The notes under the pieces: generated by a model
Databases searched by the model: none
What the model was told of the DNA's origin: nothing
Seen by the model: only the letters and a program-made list of their open reading frames with translations
From: Candidatus Woesearchaeota archaeon
GTDB taxonomy: Archaea > Nanobdellota > Nanobdellia > Pacearchaeales > GW2011-AR1
Direction of reading: 5' to 3'
Length of the DNA: 33,481 bases
Assembly: GCA_964509925.1 (NCBI GenBank)
Contig: CAZDZI010000005.1
Coordinates: 1-33,481 of the forward strand
Program-made: the position numbers and the translations under genes
In this document: positions 3,556 to 13,079 of the stretch, piece after piece
How the letters are laid out: every line of letters begins with the position of its first letter
How positions within the stretch are numbered: position 1 is the stretch's first letter

Positions 3556-3872
3556 GTAAGTTGGGTAGTTAACTACGGGATTCAGTTTTTAATTAATCAA
3601 ATATCGTGAATAAATCGATATTGAATTCTGAGGAAGGTCCGCCCACCATAATAAAGTCATCAGGGAAATCCTGACTGCTGTGAAGTAGAGCTCTGTTACA
3701 GAAACGGCACAGTCGCTTTTGAGCTAGGAAACATGCGTTGAGCTTTGAAGAAGCGGATTTGATGAAACGAATATCTTGACTGGTGCAAGGCTTAAAGCCG
3801 CTTAGTCGAATGTTAACAAGTTCGGTCTGCATTGAACAGCGAACTACAGAAGGTGGCCTATTCCCAACTTAC
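3556..3872 (+). ncRNA. rnpB: RNase P RNA (archaeal type A-like)
   Basis: Terminal P1 helix GTAAGTTGGG (3556-3565) pairs with CCCAACTTAC (3863-3872). CR-I-like GAGGAAGGTCCGCCC, internal ACAGAAAC and CR-V-like ACAGAAGGTGGCCTA are present, and CCACC/GGTGG can form P4. The segment is a GC-rich island in AT-rich DNA and is followed by a T6 run. Confidence 0.85.
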
Positions 3873-3874
3873 AT

Positions 3875-4246
3875 TTATTTTTTAGAAGAAGTTTTTCTAG
3901 AAATCCTTTTCTTATGTTCAAATTTATCTAATTCTGCTATCTTTACTAGTGTTTCTAACCCTTCTTTTGAACCAGTATCAATAACTAATGATGGATCTTC
4001 TTCATACATAACTGATTGCTCAGTAACACAATTTTCTCCAAACTGATATATTGTGCTAAATGGAAGTTTAACTCTTCTTACACCCAACATTGTCTTTTGT
4101 TCTTCAGTAAGAGAATTCTTTAATCCTTTAAAATATTCAGATATTTTTACAACAGCATTTGCAACAGCTGCTGAAGGAATTATTTTCCAAGTAGCTGGAT
4201 GATTATTTCCTCTTACAATCGTGTATGTTCTTTGATATCTTTCCAT
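3875..4246 (-). CDS. Hypothetical protein (123 aa)
   Basis: Clean ORF with an ATG start and a lysine-rich C-terminus. No motif recognised. Confidence 0.5.
   Translation of the reverse strand: MERYQRTYTIVRGNNHPATWKIIPSAAVANAVVKISEYFKGLKNSLTEEQKTMLGVRRVKLPFSTIYQFGENCVTEQSVMYEEDPSLVIDTGSKEGLETLVKIAELDKFEHKKRISRKTSSKK
3878..3883 (+). terminator. Oligo-T termination signal after RNase P RNA
   Basis: TTTTTT lies immediately 3' of the P1 closing helix. Archaeal RNAP terminates at T-runs. Confidence 0.4.
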
Positions 4247-4299
4247 ATAAATCTTATCTTCAATTACTTTTTAAAGATTTATATTCAGATAGCAACACA

Positions 4300-4307
4300 T
4301 TTAAAAG
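4300..4307 (+). promoter_or_regulatory. TATA-like box for tRNA-Phe
   Basis: TTTAAAAG lies 25 nt upstream of tRNA position 1. Confidence 0.35.
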
Positions 4308-4331
4308 CAAAAGATTAATTATTTCTTGTAT

Positions 4332-4403
4332 GGGATGGTAGCTCAGCGGGAGAGCACATGACTGAAGATCATGGTGTCCGGGGTTCGACTCCCCGTCGTC
4401 CCA
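4332..4403 (+). tRNA. tRNA-Phe (anticodon GAA), CCA not encoded
   Basis: Cloverleaf: acceptor GGGATGG/TCGTCCC, D arm GCTC-AGCGGGA-GAGC, anticodon arm CATGA-CTGAAGA-TCATG and T arm CGGGG-TTCGACT-CCCCG, with discriminator A. Confidence 0.93.
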
Positions 4404-4411
4404 TTTTTTTT
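4404..4411 (+). terminator. Oligo-T terminator after tRNA-Phe
   Basis: T8 run directly after the discriminator base. Confidence 0.45.
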
Positions 4412-4418
4412 CAAAAGG

Positions 4419-4426
4419 TTTATAAA
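4419..4426 (+). promoter_or_regulatory. TATA box (AAGGTTTATAAA context) for leaderless ORF 4448
   Basis: TTTATAAA ends 22 nt before the ATG. The same octamer and spacing recur at other genes. Confidence 0.4.
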
Positions 4427-4447
4427 ACAAACTAAATTATATTAAAC

Positions 4448-4693
4448 ATGGCAGAAGAAAAAGGGGTAGCATATATTTTAGGTATTGTTAGTCTGGTGTT
4501 AGCTTTCTTTCAACCACTTCCAGCAATAATTATTGGTATTATTGGTTTAGTGCAAAATAAAAAAGAGAAAAACAAAACAGCTAAAAGATTAAACATTCTT
4601 GCTATTATTATTGGAGTAATTATGTTTGCTATTATAATTGCTATTAGTATTTATAGCATATTAAATGCTGGTATAAATTTTCCTACTTATTAA
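4448..4693 (+). CDS. Small two-TM membrane protein
   Basis: 81 aa with two hydrophobic helices separated by the basic loop NKKEKNKTAKR. Confidence 0.55.
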   Translation: MAEEKGVAYILGIVSLVLAFFQPLPAIIIGIIGLVQNKKEKNKTAKRLNILAIIIGVIMFAIIIAISIYSILNAGINFPTY

Positions 4694-5281: not shown

Positions 5282-6625
5282 ATGTCATTAAAACTATATA
5301 ATACACTAGGAAGAAAAAAAGAGGTATTTAAACCAATAAAAAAAGCCCAAGTTGGAATGTATGTTTGTGGACCTACTATTTACAATTATGTTCATATTGG
5401 AAATTTAAGAGCATATATTTTTGGAGATATTCTTAGAAGATATCTTAAGTTTTCTGGATATAAAGTTAAAGAAGTTATGAACTTAACTGATGTTGAAGAT
5501 AAAACAATTAGAGATAGTCAAAAAGCAGGCAAAAAATTAAAAGACTTTACAAAAGTTTATGAAAAAGCATTTTTAGAAGATATTTCTGCATTAAATATTG
5601 AAACTCCTGAAGTTATTCCTAAAGCAACAGAACATATTAAGGAAATGGTTGCAATTATTAAGAAATTACTAGACAAAAAGATTGCATATAAGGCAGATGA
5701 TGGAATTTATTTTTCAATTAATAAGTTTAAAGATTATGGTAAGTTATCTGGAATAAATCTTGAAGAATTAAAAGAAGGTGCGAGTAAAAGAGTTGCTAAG
5801 GATGAATATGATAAAGATAGTGCTCATGACTTTGCCTTATGGAAGTTTTATGATAAAAGTGATGGAGATGTTTTCTGGGATACAGAACTTGGAAAAGGAA
5901 GACCAGGATGGCATATTGAATGTTCAGCAATGTCTTCTAAATACTTAGGACAGACTTTTGATATTCATACAGGAGGAATTGATTTAGTGTTTCCTCATCA
6001 TGAAAATGAAATTGCTCAAAGTGAAGCTGCAAATGATAAACCTTTTGTTAAATATTGGATGCATAATGAATGGGTTTTAGTAGATGGAAAGAAAATGTCT
6101 AAGTCTTTGAATAATTTCTATAGGCTAAGTGATGTAAGTACTAAAGGATTTAGCCCATTAGATTTAAGATATTTTTATTTAACAAAAATCTATAGACAAC
6201 AACTTAATTTTACTTGGAAGGGATTAGAAGCATCTAAAACAGCCTTACAAAGATTAAGAAATATACTTTCTGAAACTAAGAATGATAAAAAAACAAATAA
6301 AAAATATTTAGATGAATTCAAAAAAGCCATGGATGATGATTTGAATACTCCAAATGCATTACAAGTTCTTTGGAAACTAATCAGAGATGAAAAAGCTCAA
6401 GGAAAAATTAATACAATAAAAGAAATGGATAAGGTTTTTGGATTAAAACTTTTAGAAAAAGAAAAAGTTTCTGTTTCTGCTGATGTTAAAGCACTTGTTA
6501 AGGAAAGAGATGAAGCAAGAAAGAATAAAGAATGGGATAAATCAGATTCTCTAAGAGATAAAATAAAAAAACTTGGTTATCAAGTAAATGACACTCCTGA
6601 TGGAAGTGTTGTGAGGAAAATATGA
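5282..6625 (+). CDS. cysS: Cysteinyl-tRNA synthetase
   Basis: Class I motifs HIGN (VHIGNLR) and KMSKS, the Zn-binding CGPT.Y, and WHIECS. Length is 447 aa. Confidence 0.95.
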   Translation: MSLKLYNTLGRKKEVFKPIKKAQVGMYVCGPTIYNYVHIGNLRAYIFGDILRRYLKFSGYKVKEVMNLTDVEDKTIRDSQKAGKKLKDFTKVYEKAFLEDISALNIETPEVIPKATEHIKEMVAIIKKLLDKKIAYKADDGIYFSINKFKDYGKLSGINLEELKEGASKRVAKDEYDKDSAHDFALWKFYDKSDGDVFWDTELGKGRPGWHIECSAMSSKYLGQTFDIHTGGIDLVFPHHENEIAQSEAANDKPFVKYWMHNEWVLVDGKKMSKSLNNFYRLSDVSTKGFSPLDLRYFYLTKIYRQQLNFTWKGLEASKTALQRLRNILSETKNDKKTNKKYLDEFKKAMDDDLNTPNALQVLWKLIRDEKAQGKINTIKEMDKVFGLKLLEKEKVSVSADVKALVKERDEARKNKEWDKSDSLRDKIKKLGYQVNDTPDGSVVRKI

Positions 6626-10904: not shown

Positions 10905-11615
10905 ATGCCCCACAAATTAATCAAAGAGTTAAAAGGATTAAGTAATTCTAAACAATCAGAAATTCTTCAAGGATTTTTTAAGACAGGTAAAGGACAATAT
11001 GGGGAAGGAGATATATTTCTAGGAATTAAAGTTCCTATTCAAAGACAAGCTTGTAAAAAGTACAATTTAAGTTTAGAAGCTATTCAAAAACTTTTGAATT
11101 CTAAAATACATGAACATAGACTTTGTGCTTTGTTTACATTAGTTGCTAAGTATAAAAAAGTTAAAAATAAAAAAGAAAAAGGTAAAATATTCAAATTTTA
11201 TATTAAGAATGCTAAGAAAATAAATAACTGGGATTTAGTTGATTTATCTGCTCCAAACATTGTTGGAGATTATTTATTAGAAAATCCTCAGATTAAAAAG
11301 ATTCTTGAAAAACTAGCTAACTCAAAAAATTTATGGGAAAAAAGAATTGCCATTGTTTCTACACTTACTTTTATTAAAAATGAAAAATACCTAGAAGATG
11401 TATTAAAAATATCTTTAATACTCTTAAAAGATAAACATGATTTAATCCATAAAGCAGTAGGATGGATGTTAAGAGAACTTGGAAAAAGAGACTTATTAGC
11501 ACTAGAATGTTTTATTCAAACATATTATAAAAACATACCAAGAACTACTTTAAGATATGCCATTGAAAAGTTTCCAGAAAAGAAACGAAAAGAATATTTG
11601 AGGGGGAAATTTTAA
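10905..11615 (+). CDS. DNA alkylation repair protein (AlkD/AlkC-like HEAT-repeat glycosylase family)
   Basis: FFKTGKGQYGEGDIFLGIKVP, NNWDLVDLSAPNIVG, WEKRIAIVSTL and HKAVGWMLRE match the family pattern. Confidence 0.8.
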   Translation: MPHKLIKELKGLSNSKQSEILQGFFKTGKGQYGEGDIFLGIKVPIQRQACKKYNLSLEAIQKLLNSKIHEHRLCALFTLVAKYKKVKNKKEKGKIFKFYIKNAKKINNWDLVDLSAPNIVGDYLLENPQIKKILEKLANSKNLWEKRIAIVSTLTFIKNEKYLEDVLKISLILLKDKHDLIHKAVGWMLRELGKRDLLALECFIQTYYKNIPRTTLRYAIEKFPEKKRKEYLRGKF

Positions 11616-12496
11616 TAATCAAATCTTGCTCCAACTCTGAATCCATGAGAGAGATCTTCTAATTCAATTCCTGCTTCATCGATATCTCCTCCCCACCTAG
11701 TTCTTTTGATATTATATCCTACATTTGCTGAAAATCTTCCCCATCTTTTTCCTAATTCAATTCCAGCTTTAATTCTAGTCATAATACCATTATATTCTAA
11801 TTCTAAATTTGAATTAATTGTTTCTTCCCTTGATTCATTAAAAATAATCTTCTTCTGTTTATTAGAAATATTATTTTGTCCTGCCCCAAATTCTGCAAAA
11901 AAAGATAAAATATAATCTTTTTTTAATTTTATATCTTTTTCATAACCTAATCTTAGAAGTAAAGCATTCATCTCAACTTCTGATTTGACATCATAAATAT
12001 AATTTGTTGCTGGAATAAGTCCATGAATTGGATGAACAACAAAACCTGTTGATTCTTGTTCATAATTTCCATCCATAGAAACATCTTTCCTTAAATTGCT
12101 TAGTCCAATATACCAATTTTTATTTAAGAAAACATCTGCTTCCAAATCCAGTCTATCTGTTTTAAAACCATTTACTAAAAAATTTGTTTTTAAATCTGAC
12201 TTTCCTTTGTTGTAACTTAACCCCGCCTTTGTACTAAAAGTAGGGAATGCTATTTCTAAACCATAACCAACTCCATCTAAACTTCTTGAAGAGGATATTC
12301 CTCCCACATCATGCATATTTATAGATTCTGGATAAATTTTACTATTATCTTGATTATCTTTCATAGAAGTAGTTTTTTCTATTGATACTCTTGCTCTTGG
12401 TCTTTTTTCTCCATCTTCTGCAGGTTTACATCCTCCAAGAAATGAGCCCACTAATGCTAATCCTGTAATTCCTAATTTTTTTAATAAAGTCGCCAT
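11612..12496 (-). CDS. Lipobox-containing protein with beta-barrel (OMP-like) sequence character
   Basis: N-terminus MATLLKKLGITGLALVGSFLGGC (signal plus lipobox-like LGGC). Alternating hydrophobic beta-strand patterns run throughout. The C-terminal nonamer F-R-V-G-A-R-F-D-Y has hydrophobic residues at positions 1, 3, 5, 7 and 9 from the end. Confidence 0.6.
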   Translation of the reverse strand: MATLLKKLGITGLALVGSFLGGCKPAEDGEKRPRARVSIEKTTSMKDNQDNSKIYPESINMHDVGGISSSRSLDGVGYGLEIAFPTFSTKAGLSYNKGKSDLKTNFLVNGFKTDRLDLEADVFLNKNWYIGLSNLRKDVSMDGNYEQESTGFVVHPIHGLIPATNYIYDVKSEVEMNALLLRLGYEKDIKLKKDYILSFFAEFGAGQNNISNKQKKIIFNESREETINSNLELEYNGIMTRIKAGIELGKRWGRFSANVGYNIKRTRWGGDIDEAGIELEDLSHGFRVGARFDY

Positions 12497-12599
12497 TTTA
12501 TGTAATTTATTTAAATGTTACCCCTTTATAAACGTAGCTAAAAACCCTGCTCCTTAGTTTTTACTTAGCCTTTATAATGAATTTATCTAAAAGAAAATT

Positions 12600-13079
12600 T
12601 TAATTTCCAAGTCTAACTGTGGCATATAATAACTTTTCCCTAGGATCATAGGCAAAACCAATTCCTAATGAATTATTTTTATATAAATTCCAACTATGTA
12701 ATGGGGAGGATCTCCATAAACTAATTATTGTTCGCAATGCTGATTCGTCCCCTTCTCTTACTGAAGATGCTGCTGTAACCTCTGCTGTTTCTGATGAATA
12801 AAGAGGAATAAAATGTCCTACTTTCTGTATGTGAAGCATCTTAATGCTATTTTGAGTTGCTTTAGAAGCTAATTCAAAATCATACATAAATTCTTTCCTA
12901 AATCCAACTTGAAGAAGATGATGTAATCTAGGACATAAACTATTCATCCATTCAAGTACCATTAAAATAAAGAGCAATAAAGTTATAAAAGGTTTATTGT
13001 GATTAAAATATATGATAAACTTAGAAAAAATTAAGGAAAATAAATCCATTAAAGAACTATTAGAGTTTGGGATAATCAA
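12600..13079 (-). CDS. CAP/SCP (PR-1-like) domain protein; start codon uncertain
   Basis: The C-terminal half has the CAP signature ...ALRTIISLWRSSPLHSWNLYKNNSLGIGFAY.... The longest ORF overlaps the cbf5 start on the opposite strand, so an internal start (M11 at 13049 or M40 at 12962) is more likely. Confidence 0.5.
   Translation of the reverse strand: MIIPNSNSSLMDLFSLIFSKFIIYFNHNKPFITLLLFILMVLEWMNSLCPRLHHLLQVGFRKEFMYDFELASKATQNSIKMLHIQKVGHFIPLYSSETAEVTAASSVREGDESALRTIISLWRSSPLHSWNLYKNNSLGIGFAYDPREKLLYATVRLGN

Follow-up and report, generated by a model that had tools for sequence, protein, structure and literature searches.

A lipobox protein with the predicted fold of a bacterial outer-membrane barrel in a Candidatus Woesearchaeota archaeon

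Transmembrane beta-barrels with a C-terminal beta-signal count as a hallmark of the outer membranes of bacteria, mitochondria and plastids and depend on insertases of the Omp85 family. Tethered arrangements are also known from bacteria, among them the Lpp/OprI tethers, the OmpM/SLH-porins of Negativicutes and Thermus, and the engineered Lpp-OmpA display fusions. Here we describe P0001, a protein of 294 amino acids (aa) encoded on a 33,481-nucleotide stretch of DNA from a Candidatus Woesearchaeota archaeon (assembly GCA_964509925.1, contig CAZDZI010000005.1), in which a predicted lipidation signal is joined to a predicted barrel of the outer-membrane-protein (OMP) type. This stretch, called the window below, is an entire 33.5-kb contig of the source genome G000 (0.62 Mb in 69 contigs, 86% complete, 30% GC); genomes of the same genus are referred to as congeners. 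A native archaeal barrel gene in a phylum lacking Omp85 poses the question of which membrane the barrel would enter, and how. It bears on whether some DPANN archaea possess a second membrane, on the assembly of OMP-type barrels in ether-lipid or foreign membranes without the machinery for assembling beta-barrels (BAM), and on the hosts of Pacearchaeota/Woesearchaeota-type archaea, for which bacteria have been proposed but never shown (PMC8204110, PMC9723730).

Among the structural matches listed for the P0001 model, the best are small to medium-sized monomeric barrels, namely the omptins OmpT/Pla (1i78, 2x55, 7xw0), OpcA (2vdf), the Legionella Dot/Icm-associated porin I (9nh1) and OmpG (2x9k), with Foldseek E-values of 1e-8 to 5e-7 and a probability of 1.0. 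Common to P0001 and these barrels are a signal peptide, an antiparallel meander of long strands and an aromatic beta-signal at the C-terminus, and their size is also similar (225-300 aa). The likeness is one of fold only: there is no detectable sequence similarity, template modelling (TM) scores are only 0.3-0.5, and no Pfam or PDB sequence match at E<=10 places P0001 among the omptins. Unlike these barrels, P0001 carries a lipobox and a tether, and its archaeal host is without Omp85, Lgt and Lsp.

Predicted fold and sequence signature

The original prediction, made from the DNA letters alone, had proposed that the gene carries a bacterial-style OMP barrel signature in an archaeal context. This core claim is supported by the fold predicted with AlphaFold2 (AF2), by its Foldseek neighbours and by the terminal aromatic residue kept in the family. 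The elements of the gene and its product are as follows.

11612..12496, minus strand: complete P0001 gene, 294 aa, ATG start, stop codon at 11612-11614
12431..12496, minus strand: signal peptide, residues 1-22 (MATLLKKLGITGLALVGSFLGG), a basic n-region followed by a hydrophobic core; AF2 helix at 2-19
12428..12439, minus strand: lipobox LGGC, residues 20-23, a match to the PS51257-type pattern; Cys23 is the predicted lipidation site
12293..12427, minus strand: polar linker region, residues 24-68, from AF2 confidence
11615..12397, minus strand: predicted OMP-type beta domain, residues 34-294, from AF2, Foldseek and dyad density
11999..12076, minus strand: most conserved family motif, residues 141-166 (MDGNYEQESTGFVVHPIHGLIPATNY), from comparison of the three family sequences
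11684..11695, minus strand: WGGD, residues 268-271, with GGD invariant in the family, in the last long predicted loop
11615..11644, minus strand: C-terminal beta-signal-like strand GFRVGARFDY, residues 285-294; both homologs have F as their terminal aromatic

Run on an alignment of three sequences, AF2 modelled P0001 with a mean predicted local distance difference test score (pLDDT) of 65 and a predicted TM-score (pTM) of 0.64, and four of the five models were alike in mean pLDDT (60-65). In the best model the signal-peptide helix is followed by long beta elements only, with no other helices. The 11 elements assigned by DSSP parse into about 14 antiparallel strands of 12-16 residues, connected by tight turns at one end and by low-confidence loops at the other. 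A Foldseek search of the PDB returned 164 matches at E<=0.001, the best 50 of which are all bacterial outer-membrane barrels. Scores reach an E-value of 1e-8 with a probability of 1.0, and the barrels among the matches listed comprise OmpT/Pla, OpcA, the Legionella porin, FadL/TodX, autotransporter beta-domains and OmpG. Against BFVD, which holds predicted viral structures, 23 matches at E<=0.001 were obtained, mostly to OMP barrels encoded by phages, with a best E of 2e-11 and a target-normalised TM of up to 0.59. A structural model had been suggested as a check on the original prediction; it yielded an all-beta meander whose listed neighbours are OMP barrels in both PDB and BFVD. From these models we infer that the mature part of P0001 is an OMP-type beta-barrel.

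The sequence features first pointed out could all be recovered. The open reading frame (ORF) lies on the minus strand at the position and with the length given for it, the strand strings LSFFAEFGAG, LELEYNGIMTRIKAGIELG and RFSANVGYNIKR and the ending GFRVGARFDY each occur in P0001, the N-terminus MATLLKKLGITGLALVGSFLGGC matches the PROSITE PS51257-type lipobox pattern, and the residues at 1, 3, 5, 7 and 9 from the end are Y, F, A, V and F. The signal peptide is the sole strongly hydrophobic stretch of the protein, which contains 10.5% Gly and, at Cys23, a single cysteine. Linker residues 24-33 and 49-68 are of low confidence or disordered (pLDDT below 50 at 16-29 and 49-68). Because the first AF2 strand already falls at 34-48, the flexible tether may be anything from 10 to about 45 residues long.

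How far such a signature stands out was assessed within the source genome. With the beta-signal pattern defined as a terminal aromatic plus hydrophobic residues at -3, -5, -7 and -9, it was found in 5 of 595 non-overlapping ORFs of at least 100 aa, two of these five being plain helical membrane proteins; a lipobox was found in 8 of the 595. Both features occur together in only two proteins, P0001 and a protein of 464 aa from contig C2 (Fisher p=0.0016), and the combination of lipobox and beta-signal exceeds chance. The beta-dyad density, a simple measure of alternating hydrophobic/polar 9-mers, was calculated over 454 proteins of the genome. P0001 ranks 1st and the contig C2 protein 3rd, while five genuine OMP-type controls fall at the 93rd-100th percentile and the homolog P0003 at the 93rd. 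The protein in rank 2 (C17:4467-5276, minus strand) was rejected as an OMP, being a secreted Cys-rich repeat protein of 269 aa with the motif L-S-x-E/T-T-N-A-H three times; it adjoins a lipobox protein of 497 aa (C17:2944-4437).

The strongest family motif and the invariant GGD both fall in predicted loops. Within residues 141-166, G143, N144, E146, E148, F152, V153, P156 and A163 are invariant in the three-member family. This motif, the strongest of the family, reads GN-x-E-x-E...FV-x-x-P and sits in a low-confidence predicted loop, where it is a candidate functional site or plug. The loop motifs are rich in Glu, Asn and Asp and may form a binding or selectivity site. Within the gene, an 18-nt direct repeat (17/18 identical; 11659-11676 and 11752-11769) codes for AGIEL twice, 31 residues apart; despite this repeat, an internal hairpin duplication in P0001 is not significant at the protein level (z=0.4).

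Family, genomic context and authenticity

P0001 belongs to a family which, by sequence comparison, is a tiny orphan with three known members. Neither its sequence nor the three-sequence profile gave a significant match in Pfam, NCBIfam or PDB. An exhaustive phmmer search of 1.84 billion representative proteins returned no relatives other than P0002 (297 aa, E 5e-12, 28% identity) and P0003 (307 aa, E 7e-5, 24% identity). Word-indexed protein searches gave only P0001 itself and P0003, a scan of genome contigs with the 141-166 motif as a pattern gave no further member, and a metagenome scan gave the same two sequences again. Both homologs have an N-terminal signal peptide. P0002 has an LSGC lipobox at the corresponding place, whereas P0003 has an AKA-type cleavage site and no Cys at the lipobox position. 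Their endings (...FFLSWTMLF in P0002, ...LTAGFTWLF in P0003) alternate in hydrophobicity and close in Phe, so that a terminal aromatic is kept in 3/3 members. Widespread soluble archaeal homologs, named at the outset as the finding that would speak against a barrel, were not encountered: homologs are extremely rare. All sub-threshold profile matches of family members are to OMP families (FomA porin, AcfA, OMP_b-brl and DUF2490).

P0002 lies on a 1.1-kb contig (43% GC) beside a tRNA-Pro gene, and P0003 on a 12-kb contig (about 40% GC) whose other genes include S12 and S7, both of archaeal type, and a KaiC-like ATPase. The P0003 contig also encodes a protein of 356 aa (L004:5214-6284, minus strand). 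In this protein an N-terminal extension of 140 aa is followed by the N-methyl prepilin motif GFTLIETMIV, of bacterial type, and a DUF1559/SBP_bac_10 domain (E 6e-10); judged by its sequence, it is a pseudopilin in the style of Planctomycetes, here on an archaeal contig.

When 400 high-quality genomes of the phylum were searched with the family profile, the only match was a weak one to P0004 (L023:3879-5102, minus strand; 407 aa), in the closed 0.77-Mb genome G064 of the same class. With a relationship probability by hhalign of only 36%, it is treated as an analog and not as a family member. In P0004 a signal peptide is followed by a linker rich in Lys and Pro and by a beta-rich domain; the string ...ATINFSHIF stands about 35 residues before the C-terminus, and there are sub-threshold matches to OMP_b-brl (E 0.0016) and ShlB (E 0.0026).

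The gene itself is real and native to a DPANN-type archaeon. As originally described, the neighbours are archaeal, with S19e, L31e, Cbf5 and a PF04013 RNA methyltransferase in the window. The stop codon of P0001 overlaps that of a convergent AlkD-type gene (10905-11615, plus strand; PF08713, E 1e-59). Its GC content (0.298) equals the mean of the genome's genes (0.299) within a thousandth, GC at third codon positions (GC3) is also typical, and codon usage falls at the 79th percentile of genome genes. The composition and coverage checks proposed earlier gave concordant results: the tetranucleotide profile correlates with the genome at r=0.95 (85th percentile of 1-kb windows), and depth is 4.8 on the contig described next, compared with 5.6-6.2 in the flanks. 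The stretch is present in a salt-marsh metagenome run, of which the separate Logan assembly contains a 1250-bp contig covering window positions 11344-12593 and joining 272 nt of the conserved AlkD gene to the entire P0001 gene; a JGI contig, also of 1250 bp, carries the identical gene. Because composition is native and the gene is linked to AlkD in an independent contig, contamination or chimerism is very unlikely.

The P0001 family is absent from 60 relatives, including nine congeners. Two further elements were delimited around the gene.

11612..13011, strand not assigned: strain-specific DNA of about 1.4 kb in the AlkD-Cbf5 interval, holding P0001 and a CAP-like gene, from congener comparison
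12525..12532, minus strand: archaeal TATA-box-like element TTTATAAA, read from the sequence and centred about 32 nt upstream of the ATG

AlkD directly abuts Cbf5 in congeners G007 (Cbf5 80% identical) and G002, while in G009 the same junction is occupied by genes for a radical-SAM protein and a transporter together with a CAP-like gene, and G008 has no AlkD there. This variability among congeners indicates that P0001 and the CAP-like gene are a lineage-specific gain. No flanking direct or inverted repeats, mobile-element genes or mobile-element signature were found at the borders of the insertion. The element TTTATAAA fits an archaeal promoter and would yield a short-leader or leaderless mRNA, which is weak evidence in AT-rich DNA.

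The small neighbouring gene (window 12600-13079, minus strand) has a weak CAP/SCP match (PF00188, E 0.007), and the CAP-like gene of G009 (125 aa) likewise lies upstream of Cbf5. By comparison with G009, its start is probably the ATG at 12959 (MVLEWMNSLCPRL...); the listed TTG start at 13079 overlaps Cbf5.

Insertion machinery and barrel-like proteins in the phylum

Of the features that characterize the OMP class, P0001 combines a signal peptide, a predicted antiparallel meander with an even number (about 14) of amphipathic strands, and an aromatic beta-signal at the C-terminus. Another such feature, an insertase in the same genome, was not found: Omp85/BamA (PF01103) is absent from G000, with positive controls in seven diderm bacteria working, and Omp85 is also absent from all 400 high-quality genomes of the phylum. 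The bacterial-type lipobox pattern [LVI][ASTVIG][GAS]C is matched by LGGC, and the corresponding enzymes Lgt (PF01790) and LspA (PF01252) are absent from the source genome, again with working positive controls. In Haloferax, AliA and AliB lipidate archaeal lipobox proteins, and AliA homologs have been reported in DPANN (PMC12462473), which makes lipidation of P0001 plausible without Lgt. On the evidence of the motif, P0001 is probably lipidated at Cys23.

The second protein of the source genome with both lipobox and beta-signal, P0005, is encoded at C2:11505-12899 on the minus strand (L024:5506-6900) and carries an LSGC lipobox. It is laid out as lipobox, coiled coil and beta-rich domain, ends in FFVELNYKF, and shows a weak Lpp-like match over the lipobox and coiled coil. 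Its gene sits between archaeal methionine aminopeptidase and Cdc48. Two metagenomic homologs are known, all three family members ending in Phe, and the family is absent from the 60 relatives, including the nine congeners. The AF2 model of P0005 (pLDDT 42) is too low in confidence for fold search or classification. No homology was found between the P0001 and P0005 families, nor between the P0001 family and the archaeal OMP_b-brl set (hhalign probability 22%); in both comparisons the alignment is confined to the signal peptides.

Matches to Pfam OMP_b-brl (PF13505) at E<=1e-3 occur in 20 of the 400 phylum genomes (about 5%), six of which exceed the cut-off, and in 9 of 61 relatives, including four of the nine congeners; among the control genomes only diderm bacteria were positive. 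Two of the matches (G232:C24, L039; G387:C17, L040) were rejected as archaeal since they lie on bacterial contaminant contigs, one of them proteobacterial, high in GC and bearing an OmpW-like gene, the other Bacteroidota-like and 3.6 kb long. A contamination filter is needed whenever OMP genes are counted in DPANN bins.

Other matches stand in genuine archaeal contexts. The G022 gene lies between SRP54 and Bud32, the G447 gene beside RpoD, S11 and S4 on a 222-kb contig, and the G237 gene near an Sm protein and EndoIII; those of G382 and of the congeners G009 and G003 are likewise archaeal in setting. In several of these proteins a lipobox or a signal peptide comes first, then a linker that is polar or helical, and finally a barrel domain and a terminal Phe, as in the G003 examples IVGC...KAGVKF and GVGC...QGGLTF. 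A lipobox, a flexible or helical linker and an OMP-like barrel ending in Phe or Tyr form an architecture that recurs in the genus, with P0001 as one instance.

Several such genes are clustered. Tandem lipobox-linker-barrel genes ending in F were seen in G003 (C7; L048:2563-4719) and G009 (C1; L047:3590-6470), in both cases adjoining a surface protein with a Cys-rich tail (...C-x-x-IC-x(4-5)-C-x-x-YCD), and G009 also encodes a protein of 688 aa with a transmembrane helix, a long linker and a C-terminal OMP_b-brl domain. In the two-contig genome G447, a cluster of exported proteins with Bacteroidota-like signal peptides (L037, C2:80500-89500; ORFs 444-1133, 1137-1817, 3724-4653 and 5748-6314) adjoins the archaeal RpoD, S11 and S4 genes on the 222-kb contig, and two of its proteins have the OMP-like endings ...LKVNF or ...LKVNFD.

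Readings of the barrel and comparison with known systems

We regard it as fairly probable that P0001 is genuine, native to the archaeon and an OMP-type barrel on a lipid tether, with an accessory role at the surface. P0001 would be exported by Sec and then lipidated at Cys23, and the polar tether would hold an OMP-type barrel of roughly 12-14 strands outside the cytoplasmic membrane. The barrel might insert by itself or via the machinery of a partner, its target being a lipid layer on the cell surface or in the zone where two cells touch, where it could act as a pore or adhesin, a variable surface device. We infer lipidation, barrel closure, membrane insertion and a role at a partner interface. 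A core role in a conserved native outer membrane is unlikely, because the genes are strain-specific and the phylum is without BAM. Of the three explanations offered with the original prediction, horizontal acquisition from bacteria has gained no direct support, given 1.8 billion representatives without a bacterial homolog, a native composition, and the archaeal contig on which P0003, the sole homolog with readable context, is found. The option of an unusual envelope or a diderm partner has become sharper, both through the lack of Omp85 across 400 genomes of the phylum and through the distribution of the gene, which is accessory and strain-specific.

Several observations weigh against the lipid-tethered barrel. 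With only three sequences behind it, the AF2 model reaches moderate confidence; no single solved barrel matches it with more than a modest TM-score (0.3-0.5), root-mean-square deviations are high, and closure of the barrel and a hydrophobic belt are presumed. No curated OMP family reaches its cut-off with the P0001 family, and P0002 lies only at the 74th percentile of beta-dyad density. Lipidation is not constant in the family, since P0003 has no lipobox Cys. No insertase, outer membrane or partner organism is known for the source archaeon, and no metatranscriptome or RNA run carrying the gene was found. An SLT-type murein transglycosylase, which has been used to argue for bacterial partners of Woese-/Pacearchaeota (PMC8204110, PMC9723730), is absent from G000, so that this hint of a partner is missing; absences established in this genome alone are soft, as it is 86% complete.

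Some of these points would equally suit a beta-rich lipoprotein, either soluble or attached to the surface, that mimics an OMP and never enters a membrane; it might be an adhesin, a binding protein or a protein associated with the S-layer, for example. Soluble barrels and sandwiches also show alternating hydrophobic/polar strands, the moderate AF2 confidence and the low TM-scores to real OMPs leave room for them, no Omp85 insertase was found in the 400 phylum genomes, and lipobox anchoring is common for soluble archaeal surface proteins (PMC12462473). Such a mimic nevertheless appears unlikely. The best 50 PDB matches include no soluble fold, the confident BFVD matches are OMP barrels, and the weak profile matches are all to membrane barrels. 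The lumen inside about 14 predicted strands of 12-16 residues, with no helices, would be too large to be filled by a hydrophobic core, and the exact C-terminal aromatic is present in 3/3 members of both the P0001 and the P0005 family. Another possibility is that the archaeon has a second membrane of its own, as reported for ARMAN, Altiarchaeum and Ignicoccus, with P0001 as a resident pore assembled without BAM. A lipid anchor with a linker could bridge the inner to the outer membrane, as bacterial Lpp/OmpM-type tethers do, and would count in favour of such an arrangement. OMP-like barrels also recur in the phylum and genus, and imaging has shown a double membrane in some archaea, DPANN-type ARMAN cells among them (PMC4243693). 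We consider this improbable: a structural component would be expected to be conserved in the genus, whereas the P0001 and P0005 families are absent from the nine congeners and 60 relatives, only about 5% of phylum genomes have a PF13505-type match, and no Omp85 was found in the phylum sample, in which Lol, Lpt and Tam-type systems were not searched for.

An artefact, whether contamination by bacterial DNA, chimerism of the assembly or a transfer from a Gram-negative bacterium so recent that it is unmodified, might be suspected from the low coverage (about 5x), from a 30-nt gap between Logan contigs at 12594-12623, and from the bacterial contaminants among OMP_b-brl matches in other phylum bins (G232:C24, G387:C17). 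It is hardly credible for a gene that lies inside a 33-kb contig flanked by archaeal genes, is linked to the conserved AlkD at matching depth by the independent 1250-bp contig, is typical of the genome in GC, GC3, codon usage and tetranucleotides, and has no bacterial homolog among 1.8 billion representatives.

It seems doubtful that the barrel enters a diderm partner's outer membrane or some outer layer of the archaeon that has gone unrecognised. In its boldest form, this would mean that the genus keeps a fast-turnover repertoire of OMP-type barrels on lipid leashes: the lipid at the N-terminus would remain in the membrane of the archaeon itself, while the bacterial-style beta-signal would guide the barrel into the partner's outer membrane, possibly via the partner's BAM, and the result would be a physical tether and a nutrient conduit between cells. 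If true, OMP-type barrels would be a tool of archaeal episymbiosis, and this would point to bacterial or double-membraned hosts of Pacearchaeota-type archaea. As P0001 is small (about 270 aa when mature) and easily expressed, barrel formation and pore activity are directly testable.

Compared with curated barrel families, the P0001 family stays well below every threshold. P0003 gives 12.3 bits (E 0.19) to PF13505, whose cut-off is 28.7 bits, a weak match over the C-terminal strands to the FomA porins (NCBIfam NF049910; E 9e-5, 21.8 bits, cut-off 125) and another to the AcfA-family barrels (NF033908; E 0.12, 11.7 bits, cut-off 100). P0001 matches none of the three, and P0002 does not match FomA. 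In the literature searched, the sole related statement is one sentence on a possible relative of PopA in Altiarchaeales (PMC12228718); PopA stands for a porin-like superfamily of Bdellovibrio distinct from the P0001 family, and Altiarchaeales are a different archaeal group.

Closer in setting are the DPANN OMP_b-brl proteins (G022, G237, G447, G382, G009, G003), which share with P0001 the archaeal context, the patchy accessory status, and the succession of signal peptide or lipobox, linker and beta-rich domain. They end in Phe, and the predicted P0001 barrel is larger, with about 260 aa and about 14 strands compared with the 175 positions of the OMP_b-brl domain. With the tethered barrels of bacteria, P0001 has a design in common, as far as its own is predicted: an N-terminal anchor, a spacer and a membrane barrel. 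There is no homology between them, and in bacteria BAM inserts the barrel into the cell's own outer membrane, whereas for the host of P0001 neither is known. The fold class is a known one; what is new is a sequence-orphan, lipobox-tethered version of it, native to an archaeon whose phylum is without Omp85.

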